This document shows positions 2,949 to 10,293 of a stretch of 20,000 nucleotides of DNA, in pieces (position 1 is the first letter of the stretch; every line of letters begins with the position of its first letter). The stretch lies in contig LXFE01000157.1 in NCBI GenBank assembly GCA_001929475.1, positions 108,339 to 128,338 on the forward strand, written 5' to 3'. The notes under the pieces were generated by a model. It saw nothing but the letters and a program-made list of their open reading frames with translations, made no database searches and was not told where the DNA came from. The translations under genes were made by a program, and so were the position numbers. The DNA comes from Neolecta irregularis DAH-3 (taxonomy: Eukaryota).

Positions 2949-5077
2949 ATGAAGAACTGGGTCTTCGCTACCATCTCCAGCTATCTGCTGGCTGGTTCGT
3001 TCCTGTCGGGCGGCTATGTGTCCGCAGATGAGCAGCTGAATTACGGCACCGGTACTTGTGGCCTGCTTTTTCCCAACACTGACATCCAAGTTATTGGAAT
3101 TGATCTTGGTACTACCTATTCTTGCGTAGGTGCCATGAAATCCGGTCGAGTAGAAGTATGTCTATCCTGCTATGCGATAACCAACATCTAGATTATTGTG
3201 AATGATCAGGGCAGCCGGATTACACCATCTTATGTTGCTTTCACGGAAAATGAGCGGCTTGTAGGAGAAAGCGCTAAAAATCAAGCGGCGGCTAATCCAG
3301 AAAACACTATTTTTGATATCAAGTTCGTCAGTATTGTGCATGTTGTACTGACTTGTTTAGGCGTTTGATGGGACGGCGATTCAATGAGGCAGATGTACAA
3401 GATGATTTAAAGCACTTTCCTTTCACAGTCGTCGAACAAGACGGAAAACCGGTTGTCGAAGTCAAAGTTAAGGGAGATAACAGACGTTTCTCGCCAGAAG
3501 AAATATCCGGCATGATCCTTGGCGCTATGAAGAAAACCGCCGAAAGTTACCTTGGAGTCAACATTACTTATGCTGTCGTTACAGTTCCTGCTTACTTCAA
3601 TGATGCTCAGCGCCAAGCTACCAAAGATGCTGGTGCAATTTCTGGTCTTGTCGTCCTGCGAATCGTCAACGAACCTACAGCCGCAGCTATCGCTTACGGT
3701 CTTGATAAAAAAGAGGGTAGCAATCAAATCATTGTCTTCGATCTTGGTGGTGGTACTTTTGATGTCTCGCTCCTGAGTATTGAAGAAGGTGTTTTTGAAG
3801 TTTTAGCCACTGCTGGAGATACCCATCTTGGAGGAGAGGATTTCGACAATCGCGTCATCCAACACTTTGTTAAACTATACAATGGCAAATACAATGTCGA
3901 TATCTCCAAGGATAATAGAACTTTGGGTAAACTCAAACGCGAAGTCGAGAAAGCAAAACGTATCTTGAGTTCACAGATGAGTGCCAGGATCGAAATCGAA
4001 GCTTTCTTTGAGGGCAAGGACTTTTCTGAAACCCTCACTCGGGCCAAGTTCGAAGAAATTAATCTCGACCTATTTAAGAAGACCATCGAACCCGTCAAAA
4101 GAGTGCTCAAAGATGCAAACGTCAAGATAAGCGAAGTGGATGATATCGTCCTAGTCGGTGGTTCCACCCGTATCCCCAAGGTTCAGCAGCTCATAGAGGA
4201 CTACTTCGGTGGTAAGAAGGCTTCCAAAGGAATTAACCCCGACGAAGCCGTCGCATATGGCGCTGCTGTTCAAGGTGGTATTTTGAGTGGCGATGAGGGC
4301 GTTGATGACCTTGTTCTTCTTGATGTCTGCGCTCTCTCTGTGGGTATCGAAACTACTGGCGGAGTCATGACTAGTATCATCAAGAGGAACACTCCTATCC
4401 CATCCCGAAAACAACAGATGTTCTCTACTGCTGTTGACCAGCAACCGAGTGTACTCATCAAGGTTCATGAAGGAGAACGAACTCTTACTAAAGACAACAA
4501 CTTCCTCGGTAAATTCGAGCTTGGCGGCATTCCACCTGCGCCCAGAGGCGTTCCACAAATCGCTGTTACATTTGAAATCGACGCTAATGGTATTCTCAAG
4601 GTTACCGCTGAAGATAAAGCTGCTGGAAATACTGAAAGTATCACCATAACCAACGACAAAGGAAGACTTTCTAAGGAAGAAATTGAGCGGATGGTGACAG
4701 AAGCCGAAGAATTTGCAGAAGAAGATAAACAGAATCGTGAAAGAATTGAGGCCCGAAATGGTCTCGAGAATTACGCCTACTCTTTGAAAGCTCAGGTCAA
4801 CGATGAAGAAGGTTTGGGTGGAAAAATCAGTGCGGAAGACAAAGAAGCTATTCAAAATGCTGTGAAGACTGCTATTGAATGGCTCGATGAACACGGCTCT
4901 AGTGGTGCAAAAGAAGATTTCGAAGAACAAAAGGAGGCTCTATCCAGTGTTGCCTATCCAATTACCAGCAAGCTTTGTATGGCTCCTATTTACGAGCATT
5001 TCTGACTGGATTTTTTAGACGAAGCAGCTGGCGGATCAGAATCAGACGAGGAGCCATCTGGTCATGACGAACTCTGA
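2949..5077 (+). CDS. KAR2: ER Hsp70 chaperone BiP/Kar2 (exons 2949-3051, 3091-3155, 3192-3322, 3361-4976, 5019-5077; about 657 aa)
   Basis: Signal peptide [19 protein letters not shown]...; Hsp70 signatures [27 protein letters not shown] and [14 protein letters not shown]. Four GT-AG introns of 36-42 nt restore the frame. The last exon encodes ...EEPSGHDEL*, an ER-retention signal. Confidence 0.97.
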
Positions 5078-5154: not shown

Positions 5155-8035
5155 TTACTGATGTATTGACAATAATTCTTTTACAATGCCAGCGGCCAAA
5201 GTTTCTCCTTCATTGCGCAGTATGATCCGACCGAAGTCCTTGTTTATGCTGTATATTTCCAGTTGCATGCCCTTTCCCAAAATAGTTAACTCTACAAATG
5301 CAGCCATTCCATTTGAGAGATACCTAGGATATTAATAAACCCAAATATGACTGTTGAGCAAGGTCATACCGTGGATTCTTCTTTACTATTGTTCCGGTCG
5401 TTTTGTCGACGACAGAAATAAGTTTTGATATAATTGCTGGCTCTTCTGTTCTGCCCCTATGAATGACCACAGTTCCACCCAATGTCAAAGGCCGAGACAT
5501 GTCGAATGTGATTATACGCGCCTCAATAACCTTGACGATTTGTATGGGACTGCACATATCGCAAAGAACATCCCCAACCCTGCTGGTCAACAATTCTTTT
5601 AGAGGCACTACAAACCTTAAATGCGCAATATCAAATCCAGTTATTCCGATGATAACATTATTCCCAGCGGCGGCGACGGTTCGATCTTCATCATCTACCT
5701 CGATCGTTTTGACAACGGCTGAGTCATCACAGGTCGGGCACACCACCGGGTCACCTACTTGTATATGCCCGGAAGCAACACGGCCAATGATATTGATTGA
5801 TGCCCCACTTTGGCTGCCTTTGTACAGATCCGATATTGACAACCGGAAAGGTTTATCAACATCCCTTGAGATTTGGTTTGTGCTTTCTATAGAGTTACGC
5901 CTGAAAAATAAATAAAGGGTACCTATTTCTTCAAGAACAGATTTTTGGGCAGGCCATGAAGATAATTGTACAGGCTTTGTAGTAATGTTGCCCCCAGTCA
6001 GTCCGCTACATGGAACAAACTTCAAATTTGTCGAATCGAATCCCACACGAGAAAGAAACTCATTCATCTGTATACGAATTGTGTCAAACCGTTCTTTCGA
6101 CCATTGAACCTCCGATTTTAAGCTTGGTATCTTTGCTCAACTTACATTGTCAAGTTTATTTACTGCAACGAGCAAAGTTTGTACTCCAAGGCTGCGTGCC
6201 AGTAATGCATGCTCTTTCGTCTGGCCGTGTAAATGAAATCCAGATTCAAATGCGCCTGTAGAACCATCGACTACAAGAATGGCAAAATCGGCCTTGAATA
6301 AGTTAGCTGTGATAAGGAATAACAGGAACATAGCTGTGAGGCACCAGCAATCATATTTGGTACGAAGTCTCTGTGACCCGGCGCATCTAATAAAGTGTAT
6401 GTACGCCCTCTGATACTGAACCTCCGGATCCCAATATCGATGGTTACTCCGCTTGTATTTCAGTTCATCCTCGTAATTTAAACGAACCGATTACGTTCTT
6501 CTTCTGTTCCATCGAGCAACCACGCAAGCGCAAAAGACGATTTCCCGATTTTACCGCTCTCTTGATGGAGCTTTTGCATTGTGCGTTTTTCAACTTCTCC
6601 AAGGTCGTGGAGCAACCGGCCGATCATTGTGCTCTTTCCAGCGTCTACATGGCCTGCTTGTAAGTGCTGTCGGTGATTATGTAATGCATACCAATAACAA
6701 CAAAGTTTACATTATTATCCCGTCGAAGGGCTCTCAAAGTATCCCCATCGATCGGGTTTTTCTTGAGCACTTTACGCATCGGAACTGGATTTACTGGCAC
6801 ATTGCCGAGGCCCATGGTTTTCATGGGCCCAGTGAGAGTATCTCCACCTGTCGTTGGGGGTTTCCGAACATCTCTAGTCACCACTCGTGAAATTGCTAAA
6901 AGTAAGTGAAAGCCGAGACGGAGATCTACGTGATGTTGGGTCTGGTCGCTTATGTTTGGGAATGGAAGATGTAAATGCAATTTTGGAGATTTGTGGGGCT
7001 AAAGGGAAAACAAAGCGATGATCAGCCTTTATTCCAAGTGAAGTTTGAGAAAAAGATTTGAGAATTATAGAAGTGGCAAAGTCAGAGGCGGTTGCAAGAA
7101 GTTCAGGCACTTGTGTTGGAGGATTCGGAGGAATATCTCGATTATCTCGTTTCTTGGGTTGCTGAGAGACAAAACCGAGTTCCGACTTTTGTTTTCGGTG
7201 ATCCACAATGGGATTTTTAATTCCTTGGGAAGGTGTGATGATCTCTTTGTGAGAAGTTTCGTGCGTCAATGATTTTGACTTCCCAAACATCGCTACTGAA
7301 GACAACGCGCTAACTCTTCCAGTGGAGGAATTCACAGAAGTTCCTCGCGACTTCGCCAAAGCAGAAAGTTTAGAGACTTTTTTATTGGGCGACTCATTGT
7401 GAGGCGATCTCTCCTTGGAAAGTAACATTCCAGCGTGTTCATCATGGAGTTGACGTGGTTTGAGAATTGCAAGATCTTGTTGAAGATTAATCGAATCCTC
7501 CAATTGCGAAGAGACACGCAGTGCACCTTTTGTAACGGTAAACAATCCTCATAGAAGTAAAATCGAGAGATATTTACCCGAAGCTTTCTTATCTGGAGAC
7601 CTCGATTTTGAAACGGGGTTACGCTCTGCGTTATTCTGATTCGGTCGTTTCTTCACTTGCTGGACTAAAAATAAGTGCTAGGAAATGAAATCCGCAATAC
7701 TGAGTAACCAGTCTATAGCCTTGTGAACATCGAAATAATAATACCAGAGGGCATCTTTGATTTCTTTCTCTGATATTCCTGTCCCATCTAATGTTTGGCA
7801 AGTTTGAGAGTAGGCATTCTCCAGTTGCTCTAAAGATCTTCAATAGATATAATACAGGAAGCATTACCAGCTTCCTCTTCCGTCATTTCTGTTTGGGTCA
7901 GCAAATGCCGCTATTCTGTGTAAACCTGTATGTTCGTCTTCACAACTTTCGGCCAACACATCTGGTAGTGAGAAATTTTAGCAGACATAGTTTACCACCA
8001 ACATCGAGATTCCTCACGGCGCGATGTCGGCTCAT
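5155..8035 (-). CDS. HBS1: Hbs1 translational GTPase (eEF1A/eRF3 family; partner of Dom34/Pelota), multi-exon, with a Ski7-like exon
   Basis: Starts [11 protein letters not shown] at 8035. HBS1_N-like segment [20 protein letters not shown]. After splicing, G-domain motifs are [31 protein letters not shown] and NKLD, followed by beta-barrel domains ending [21 protein letters not shown] (TAA 5157-5155). Introns include 7995-7962, 7925-7889, 7867-7830, 7700-7665, 7577-7527 and 6929-6896. Confidence 0.93.
6930..7526 (-). other. Putative alternative (cassette) exon of HBS1 encoding Ski7-like motifs
   Basis: 597 nt (199 codons), flanked by two phase-1 introns (7577-7527 and 6929-6896). Encodes [10 protein letters not shown] and [12 protein letters not shown]. 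Confidence 0.6.
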
Positions 8036-8160: not shown

Positions 8161-10293
8161 TTACAGATCAATTAAAGAAACTTCTTCCACATGTCTTGAC
8201 CTTGTCGGTTGTCCCACCTGCTGATCAGAACCTCCAGCGTAATACTCCGGAATGAGCTGTGCCTGAGACGAAACTTGAAAAGGCCTAGTTGTTGAGCCGT
8301 GCTGGTGTGTCGCAGAAATATTCTGCACGGATGAAGCTGACCCGTCATTCCGAGTTATCTGATATGGAGGGAACTGAGAATCTAATAGACGGTCATTTGG
8401 ATATTGGGAATACGAAGATGCAAGAACTGGCGCTACAGGTACTGTGTCAACTTGAGCTGAGTTCAGGTAAGTATTTGATGTTGGATACTGAGAGACGAAT
8501 GGAACTGGGCTGAATGTATCAGCAGTGTGCTCTGCCAAAGCCGGTTGAGGATAATCTGATCTAGTGCTTAATAGTTCGCGTTGGTTATAACTAGTGGAGT
8601 TTGACCGAATGGGATTGTCCGAACGATCAAAGTAAGAAGCAGAAGCCGCTTGCGAAATGTTTTGATGGGGAAGATACTGCTGAGGAGCCGATAGCATGTA
8701 CGAGGAATAACGGCCTTGTCGTCCAATAGTCGTCATAGAAAATCTGGATTCAAGGAGCTGATCATAAATATGAACAGCTTTTCCGATCTGAGAATGCATC
8801 CTTAGTAAAGTTTCTACATCAATTTAATTTTCACCTTGCAAGGGTATTCACCATGTTTATTCATAGTTTCAGCAAGTGCACGGGCAAGTTTTGGTCTAAG
8901 AGCACCAATAGAATCGTGCAATTCCTGAATTTGGGGTTCTTTCGTCACTGTTCCAATAGGAGCAGACTTCAAGCGCTCTATCAGAGTACTGAAAAGGGTG
9001 ATACTTTCAGTCTCTACTGGTGAGAGGTCGTACAAAACTACAGTCTACCCAGTTAGACTGGACGACATGAGTACCATACTTTTGTTGATGAATGCGATTT
9101 GTATAGCGGTGACTGTGTAGGTGGTTCAACGACGACCTTCTTCTTTGCCTCCTCAACATCGCGAAGTGATGCCTGAATGGCGGCCTCGAGATCGTCATCT
9201 TTAGGTTTAGATGTGGTTTTAGGTTGGTAGCTGCTAGAACGGGCAGGAGCAGGTTTGGAGATTAGATCGATTTTCGTGCTATCTTCTAAGCTCAGACGGA
9301 GTGCTGTTTTCAAGTCTTCGTCATCTTCCGCGTCTTCGCGAGCTGGTGGTGTTGCTGGAGTCTGTAAAAGCGGTCGTGTACCAGTTTGGTGTTTGAGTTT
9401 TTGAGCATTTCTGGGTTCAGTTTGTATAATGTGACATCCATCACAGACACGGACAGGTTGTACAATGCCAAGACGGGGGAGAGGAATAGTTTTTGCTGAG
9501 CAGACCCCGCAGAAAACATTTCCGCAATTCCGGCAGTGATGCTTGCGATTGGTAAAAGTGAACGGTATTCTACATCTCATGCAAACATCAGAATCAATCC
9601 ATTCGGGCGGCTGGGTTTAGTTAGCTACCTCCGTATGAGAAAGATATTACAGCAATTGTATCGACGTATGATGCTGTGATTTCCTGTACCGTGGGAAACT
9701 CAAAACCTATTCATAAGATTCATGTCAAACATCGTCCAGTTGATGCCTTCATACTTCAACGATTTGACTGCCTCTTCAACGTAGTGCAGGTGGGGTTTGC
9801 CTTGAAAGGCCAGTACCCATACCTGCATCAATTCCAGAATCCTGGACTTCACTTCAGCATTGGTGAATACCTACAAGTTAGCCACTAGATCAGCAGCAAG
9901 GATACCGTTGACTTGAGCAGAGAGGACATATTATCTATAAACTCTTTGGACGCCACCTCCACGAGAAAGTGATCTCCGCCGTTCTTGACACAGGCATCGA
10001 TGAGCTGTAGGTAAGCAATTCCTAGAAGTATGGTACGACGAATACCCGTAGAGTAGACAGTTGGACATTGGGGTTCTTATTCTCCAGACGCCGTTTCAGA
10101 GCCTTCATGGCGTCCTTGGGGGCTACAGACTTGCTCCTGATCTGATCGCATATCTCGAGAGTAAGGGCCCAGTCTTCGAAACCGGAAGGCAATGTTTCAG
10201 AGGTGGCCTTATCTGTGCAGGTTAGGCAGGTGAATACGCGCACAGGGAGATACCGATGAGCTCATCGAGAGGATTCGAGGACCACCAGGACAT
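8161..10293 (-). CDS. VPS27: ESCRT-0 subunit Vps27/Hrs (VHS, FYVE, 2 UIM, GAT/coiled coil, C-terminal clathrin-box-like motif), multi-exon
   Basis: Starts [22 protein letters not shown] ([13 protein letters not shown]...NPNVQL). [31 protein letters not shown]...VRVCDGC. UIMs: [14 protein letters not shown] and [13 protein letters not shown]. Ends SLIDL* at 8161. Confidence 0.95.

Follow-up and report, generated by a model that had tools for sequence, protein, structure and literature searches.

The SKI7/HBS1 gene and its exons

We analyzed a 20,000-nucleotide (nt) stretch of the genome of Neolecta irregularis DAH-3 (contig LXFE01000157.1, positions 108,339 to 128,338; hereafter the window, whose coordinates are used throughout). 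This fungus belongs to the Taphrinomycotina of the Ascomycota, and its window carries, on the minus strand, a SKI7/HBS1 gene that extends from an ATG at 8035 to a stop codon at 5157-5155. The initial annotation of this DNA had singled out a 597-nt exon of the gene (7526-6930), flanked on both sides by phase-1 introns, as a skippable Ski7-like module, and our model of 14 exons reproduced the exon and its boundaries. As had also been claimed, inclusion of this exon keeps the GTPase, giving a long form of 793 amino acids (aa; 794 aa in the deposited annotation), which is the annotated protein. The exon peptide (6931-7524, minus strand) is 100% identical over 198 residues to the 794-aa 'HBS1-like protein [Neolecta irregularis DAH-3]' (P0001), and P0001 itself was the sole match in a word-based search for longer proteins. 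The exon model agrees with P0001 to residue 462 and then again past two small differences, which concern two introns.

The identity of the gene is shown by its match to P0001 and by its domains. Among Pfam matches to the exon translations, HBS1_N (PF08938) was found in exon 4 (E 1.8e-10; 41.5 bits versus a cut-off of 26.4), and GTP_EFTU (31.3 bits) and GTP-eEF1A_C (36.2 bits) both exceeded their cut-offs. GTP_EFTU_D2, for which the query was a partial exon, scored 23.1 bits, below its cut-off of 30.3. The closest PDB relatives of a full-length profile were Hbs1l/Hbs1 (E 1.5e-185), in a search that is swamped by GTPases. The G1 (GHVDAGKS), G3 (DAPGH, with the catalytic His), and G4 (NKLD) motifs are intact and invariant across 20 sequences including that of Neolecta. 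Judged by its domain order and intact G motifs, the gene belongs to the Hbs1/Ski7 subfamily of eEF1A-like translational GTPases.

Introns of the gene are 34-51 nt long, and the first seven (8035-6654, minus strand) are all of phase 1, a uniformity of phasing that is unusual. Because of this phasing, any of exons 2-7 would be skippable in frame. The symmetric phase-1 boundaries of the 597-nt exon, which had been taken as a distinctive feature, are therefore not distinctive here, and the 34-nt intron that follows the exon is likewise normal for this gene. Nor is the acceptor at 7527 as weak as it had been called, since 8/15 upstream pyrimidines is not exceptional among the 13 acceptors of this gene, which span 0.33-0.87. 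The features that define the exon and its surroundings are as follows.

5155..8035, minus strand: SKI7/HBS1 gene (exon model; equal to P0001 except at two introns)
7701..7829, minus strand: exon 4, encoding the HBS1 N-terminal domain (PF08938) and present in all predicted isoforms
7572..7577, minus strand: common 5' splice site GTAAAT; exon 5 (7664-7578) ends in G, which is base 1 of a split codon (phase 1)
7577-7527, minus strand: intron 5, 51 nt, GTAAAT...AAAAG, phase 1, forming the upstream flank of the 597-nt exon
7527..7528, minus strand: proximal 3' splice site AG, leading to the long Ski7-like isoform (junction G|GT = Gly) and used in P0001
7526-6930, minus strand: exon of 597 nt, belonging to P0001
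6896..6929, minus strand: intron 6, 34 nt, GTAGAT...CTTAC...TTTTAG, phase 1, with 13/15 pyrimidines at its acceptor and of ordinary length
6874..6876, minus strand: TAG that closes the frame when intron 6 is retained (321-aa product without the GTPase)
6692..6895, minus strand: exon 7, a linker into the GTPase G1 motif that is common to GTPase-bearing isoforms (exon model, alignment)

Homology of the 597-nt exon to Ski7

Sequence comparison indicates homology between the 597-nt exon and the alternative, Ski7-specific region found in the SKI7/HBS1 genes of other ascomycetes. The best 120 orthologues from a whole-protein search fall into two length classes, of ~590-620 aa and ~780-890 aa; one of the 120 is a Neolecta protein, which is weak evidence on gene copy number. 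When 20 long and 10 short forms were aligned with MAFFT, the Neolecta exon aligned with a block that is present only in the long forms. Moreover, a profile built from 19 other ascomycete long isoforms scored the Neolecta region at 30.2 bits (E 2.3e-11 for one sequence), and the maximum score of the same profile on 2000 shuffles was 10.5 bits. The exon peptide alone gave no Pfam match and, in a phmmer search against 1.84 billion representatives, 0 matches at E ≤ 0.001. The homology thus escapes a single-sequence search but was visible to the profile. In a metagenome scan with the exon peptide, 126 pattern stretches were matched and 0 were confirmed by tblastn. We also built a profile restricted to the alternative region (A2; ten rows, comprising Neolecta and nine relatives) and compared it with 177,635 distinct PDB sequences. 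The top five matches were yeast Ski7 (8qcf, 8qca, 5jea, 5g06) together with a human HBS1L isoform from exosome complexes (9g8m), at E values of 0.003-0.38 and unrelated coiled-coil proteins coming next; these matches arise mainly through motif S3, which Neolecta lacks.

The conserved motifs of this region are listed here, together with the region itself.

6999..7526, minus strand: Ski7-specific alternative region (528 nt, 176 aa), which is part of an exon in the long form and, by prediction, part of an intron in the short form (profile score; precisely this stretch is absent from annotated short isoforms of other species)
7345..7374, minus strand: motif S1, residues 156-165 (alignment of long isoforms; Fig. 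S3 of PMC3597508)
7069..7089, minus strand: motif S2 or 'SKI7-like motif', ASDFATS, residues 251-257, with predicted exosome (Rrp43) docking (invariant residues, profile alignment)
6931..6978, minus strand: degenerate remnant of motif S3/patch-4, residues 288-303 (alignment with relatives)

Two exon peptides that had been pointed out earlier mapped to 7374-7345 and 7101-7066, and alignment of the exon peptide to fungal Ski7/Hbs1 proteins gave matches for S1 and S2, and a degenerate remnant for S3. In an alignment of 20 long-isoform sequences including Neolecta (A1), S156, K157, L158, A160, L161, A162, and R165 of S1 are invariant in 20/20, as are S252 and F254 of S2, where the usual Pro is Ala in Neolecta. 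The Neolecta S1 also aligns with the 'motif S1' marked in Fig. S3 of PMC3597508, a label given there to 'KMSKLAALAKARK' of Saitoella and to the N-terminus of Schizosaccharomyces pombe Ski7; 'PSPDD' is labelled motif S3 in the same figure. For S2, the profile aligns akPSsFAtsl with ARPSAFASTL of the human HBS1L isoform (9g8m). This alignment of S1 and S2 with other ascomycete long isoforms, like the profile score, bears out the earlier proposal of a combined SKI7/HBS1 locus with Ski7 motifs.

The motifs have been tied to defined contacts in the literature. PMC10659929 describes yeast Ski7 as binding Ski3 TPR 26/27 through helix H1 (residues 1-12), as binding Exo10 through a segment of residues 119-225, with helices H4-H6 docking on Csl4, Mtr3, and Rrp43, and as contacting the Ski2 helicase through helix H7 (residues 212-225). 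According to PMC6143672, the 'SKI7-like motif', with metazoan consensus A+PShFAahL, docks on Rrp43, and a 'Patch 4-like' consensus, ...PF.F..PSPDD.V, contacts Csl4. On this basis, S1 and S2 of the Neolecta exon correspond to the motifs through which Ski7 binds Ski3 and docks on Rrp43, S1 being the counterpart of the first helix of yeast Ski7.

Upstream of S1 (residues ~106-150; 7524-7380, minus strand), Pezizomycotina long isoforms share FFxDxPWxxVP and GLLGGS, for which Neolecta has the faint counterparts QLEDSIN and GMLLSKE. This part of the Ski7-specific region has thus diverged in Neolecta too.

The locus is very probably a SKI7/HBS1 gene that is undivided, a kind familiar from other ascomycetes. 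Fungi are known to have such two-in-one genes, and SKI7/HBS1 is established as alternatively spliced across fungi, animals, and plants (PMC3597508, PMC6143672, and PMC7491326). Few other fungal splicing events are known that are both ancient and protein-diversifying. The subphylum of Neolecta holds both Saitoella, with one alternatively spliced gene, and Schizosaccharomyces, with two genes. A full-text search of one literature library found no paper naming both Neolecta and Ski7; a broad 2018 PNAS survey of SKI7 splicing may cover Neolecta.

A candidate distal 3' splice site within the exon

In the ascomycetes Lachancea, Aspergillus, and Saitoella, the gene has one 5' and two 3' splice sites, the distal one lying just upstream of motif S3 (PMC3597508). 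We surveyed all 33 AG dinucleotides between 7560 and 6881 of the Neolecta gene. The AG at 7000-6999, which the initial annotation had not noted, is preceded by 14/15 pyrimidines, the best tract among both the 33 regional AGs and the gene's 13 acceptors; across both strands of the whole window, 2 of 2434 AGs have at least 14/15 pyrimidines upstream. It is also the only one of the 33 with a CTRAY motif (CTGAT) within 45 nt upstream. Joining to this AG is in frame: the final G of exon 5 together with CC gives Ala, 528 nt are removed, and a 617-aa protein results. The acceptors at 7527 and 6999 are thus both of phase 1, with open frames of 793 and 617 aa, and constitute two in-frame 3' sites at the level of sequence. 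These predicted lengths fit both length classes of the orthologues.

7021..7025, minus strand: CTGAT, candidate branch-point motif for the distal site (branch A at 7022, 22 nt upstream of the AG)
6999..7015, minus strand: predicted distal 3' splice site, consisting of the tract CTTTGTTTTCCCTTT (7015-7001) and AG (7000-6999), with exon start at 6998 and junction G|CC = Ala

The position of this site matches a verified site in Saitoella and an annotated short-form junction in the Orbiliaceae. Saitoella complicata, another member of the Taphrinomycotina, has like Neolecta a single gene with HBS1_N, S1, the GTPase, and a PSxFA motif (with Ala for Pro in Neolecta). Its long form reads ...TASKAS-G-PRLVIDE... 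and later ...FFYLPAS-A-APEVAKVFSGPSPDD, and its short form, supported by reverse-transcription PCR (RT-PCR), reads ...TASKA-SAAPEVAKVFSGPSPDD (SKAS-A-APEV...) (Fig. S3, PMC3597508); both of its 3' splice sites were shown by RT-PCR (Results and Fig. 3B, PMC3597508). The Neolecta long form reads ...DKKAS-G-ALRVSS..., and the predicted short form KKAS-A-PQIS. The two species agree in that the exon before the junction closes with ...KAS and a split codon, which becomes Gly at the proximal and Ala at the distal site. Their short forms, of which the Neolecta one is predicted, resume with Ala-(A)P..., 8-9 residues ahead of the Phe at the S3 position. In the Orbiliaceae, the short form of Arthrobotrys musiformis (P0041) corresponds to the long form of Orbilia oligospora (P0092) minus residues 104-296 and resumes at APTQKAA, with Ala as its junction residue where P0092 has Val. 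The Gly/Ala pair of Saitoella and the Val/Ala pair of the Orbiliaceae fit an upstream exon that ends in G with phase 1. Unlike Neolecta, Saitoella has a canonical S3 (FSGPSPDDVV) in both isoforms, whereas Neolecta has an additional 34-nt intron right after the S3 remnant, and its sites are predictions.

On balance we lean towards an Hbs1 form made through the internal distal acceptor at 6999, which is the mechanism best supported by the sequence. Because Neolecta is an ascomycete with an apparent conserved distal site inside the exon, the mechanism is probably a choice of 3' splice site rather than exon skipping. A single pre-mRNA would be cut at one 5' splice site (7577) and most likely joined to either of two in-frame 3' splice sites that compete for it. 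Choice of the proximal AG (7528-7527) would keep the 176-aa region with S1 and S2 and yield a 793-aa Ski7-like adaptor that retains HBS1_N and the GTPase. Use of the distal AG (7000-6999; intron 7577-6999, 579 nt) would remove that region and yield a 617-aa Hbs1-like ribosome-rescue GTPase. We infer that both sites are used in vivo and, by analogy, that the two proteins may divide the Ski7 and Hbs1 functions as they do in Lachancea kluyveri. The L. kluyveri gene (PMC3597508) resembles this proposal in having one 5' and two in-frame 3' sites, the proximal serving Ski7 and the distal serving Hbs1 function, with S1 and S2 lying between the sites. It differs in that its functions were tested by complementation and western blot and that, with one intron, its structure is much simpler than that of the Neolecta gene.

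If the two sites are used in this way, the alternative-3'-splice-site mechanism has been kept even where introns are otherwise 34-51 nt, and Neolecta makes a natural Ski7-like protein without the patch-4 motif, which would be useful for asking what role that motif has. The Neolecta Hbs1 form would then be missing from databases, because the deposited record lists the long form only.

Opposing evidence and other explanations

Several observations weigh against a distal site at 6999. The pyrimidine tract encodes RFVFPL, resembling an F.[FL]P peptide motif that is conserved in relatives, and protein constraint may therefore explain part of the tract. At 22 nt from the AG, the branch motif is farther away than the branch-like motifs of the other introns (~6-12 nt), and the predicted 579-nt intron would be ~11 times longer than any other intron in the gene. 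The sole deposited model is the long form, and no shorter or fragment Neolecta protein was found over residues 60-340 (E ≤ 0.01, 500 candidates). The alignment behind the 19-isoform profile was computed with the Neolecta row present, and the row was then excluded from the profile. Finally, S3 is degenerate, the AFxGPSPDDVVxAAQS of relatives being retained only at F289 and P294, so that the gene lacks a feature by which Ski7 is defined.

An RNA structure that would bring the distal site close was considered and dropped, as the fold of the 601-nt stretch 7590-6990 is unexceptional (z = -0.25; 8/20 shuffles fold at least as well).

The loss of S3 is the one unusual feature of this locus and adds a modest twist to a known arrangement. 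In the columns of P292, S293, D295, and D296, Neolecta is the single deviating row of the 20 in A1. A simple S1 pattern is matched by 32 of the 120 listed orthologues, and 31 of these 32 have SP[DE][DE] before G1, Neolecta being the exception. The initial annotation had not recognized a PSPDD motif in the exon, and our six-frame search likewise found no PSPDD-like motif in any frame of the gene; the single PSPDD-like match in the whole window (2177, plus strand) is unrelated. A 2018 review terms PSPDD (patch-4/S3) universally conserved in SKI7 orthologues. Because the canonical motif is degenerate in Neolecta, the exosome/Ski2 contact made through S3 is probably weakened or replaced.

We consider it unlikely that only the annotated long protein is made, with the AG at 7000-6999 a coding coincidence or relic and the Hbs1 role filled by the long protein or by a separate gene, as in Schizosaccharomyces. 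A constitutive long form agrees with the sole deposited model and with the degeneration of S3, a hint that part of the region is under relaxed constraint, and duplication with loss of alternative splicing arose independently in Schizosaccharomyces and Saccharomyces (PMC3597508). However, subfunctionalized SKI7 genes have lost the HBS1_N exons and their G motifs are degenerate (Fig. S3, PMC3597508), whereas in the Neolecta gene HBS1_N and intact G motifs occur together with S1/S2, as they do in species with a single gene. The SKI7 gene of S. pombe (SPAP8A3.05), also of the Taphrinomycotina, illustrates this difference: it shares S1 with Neolecta and has PSSFA and S3 (Fig. S3, PMC3597508), but SKI7 and HBS1 are separate, unspliced-type genes in S. 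pombe, and Ski7 is without HBS1_N and has degenerate G motifs, whereas Neolecta keeps all of these elements in one gene. Moreover, the L. kluyveri long isoform does not complement an hbs1 deletion (PMC3597508), and a 14/15 tract with an in-frame AG at the exact homologous position is unlikely to arise by chance, given the 2 in 2434 AGs noted above.

Less probable again is the scheme of the initial annotation, in which the 597-nt exon is skipped as a cassette to give Hbs1, and retention of intron 6 gives a Ski7-like protein without the GTPase, as proposed for basidiomycetes and human HBS1L. Its individual predictions were reproduced: 7578 would join 6895 in frame (G|CA = Ala), giving 594 aa, a typical Hbs1 size, and retention of 6929-6896 would add 18 codons before the TAG at 6876-6874, giving 321 aa. 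The acceptor at 6896, with 13/15 pyrimidines and a CTTAC motif, is consistent with such a skip. Exons are skipped in basidiomycetes and human, where a GTPase-less Ski7-like product is possible; Cryptococcus, Ustilago, and human have been described both as skipping exons and as having a truncated form (PMC3597508). Cryptococcus neoformans, Ustilago maydis, and human HBS1L (HBS1LV3) resemble Neolecta in that a single gene has Hbs1-like and Ski7-like products, with the Ski7-specific sequence on one or more alternative exons between the HBS1 N-terminus and the GTPase (PMC3597508 and PMC5389692). They differ in that exon skipping is the source of Hbs1 and that the GTPase is probably or certainly absent from the Ski7-like product, whereas the Neolecta sequence favors the ascomycete scheme. 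The in-frame skip carries no weight in a gene whose first seven introns are all of phase 1, a stop codon is expected upon retention of almost any intron here, and intron 6 is ordinary for the gene in length and signals; we found no specific support for a functional GTPase-less product. In addition, the choice in ascomycetes examined to date is between 3' splice sites, with the GTPase kept in the long form, and the cassette scheme leaves the exceptional acceptor at 7000-6999 unexplained. Thus, of the original interpretation, the SKI7/HBS1 locus with its Ski7-specific exon stood, and cassette skipping to 6896 gained no support beyond being in frame, although the gene may yet give up to three proteins.

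The two schemes are not exclusive, as the strong, in-frame acceptor at 6896 could act as a third choice beside 6999, but we regard as the most doubtful reading one in which donor 7577 is joined to three acceptors (7527, 6999, and 6896), giving a Ski7-like form that works without PSPDD and two Hbs1 forms with or without the 23-residue S3 remnant, which, if true, would point to a rewired Csl4/Ski2 contact in this lineage or to a Ski7 function in decay.

Apart from the choice of acceptor at the 597-nt exon, two introns in the GTPase-coding part of the gene deserve mention. A 22-nt 'intron' at 5922-5901 would disrupt the frame and was rejected in favor of the deposited 36-nt one (5922-5887, minus strand), which fits. 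Its length is a multiple of three and it has no stop codon, and its retention would insert 12 in-frame residues between GTPase domains. Farther upstream, a conserved GTPase-domain peptide (6344-6293, minus strand) needs an intron at 6333-6293 that begins with CT (CAG|CTATGT...CAAG), and CTATGT at 6333 differs by one base from GTATGT, which would be a perfect donor. In the deposited model, the GT at 6344 and the AG at 6307 are used instead, so that a different 12-residue stretch replaces GASQ. The segment spanning 6344-6293 is conserved in the 19 other sequences of A1. Either position 6333 is misassembled or polymorphic, or the donor has truly been lost and the splice has shifted.

On either side of SKI7/HBS1 lies another recognizable gene. 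An Hsp70-family gene (3317-5005, plus strand; PF00012, E 1e-219) converges on its 3' end. Directly upstream, on the same strand, is a VHS-FYVE-UIM (Vps27-like) gene (8161-10076, minus strand), whose stop codon lies ~125 nt before the SKI7/HBS1 ATG.

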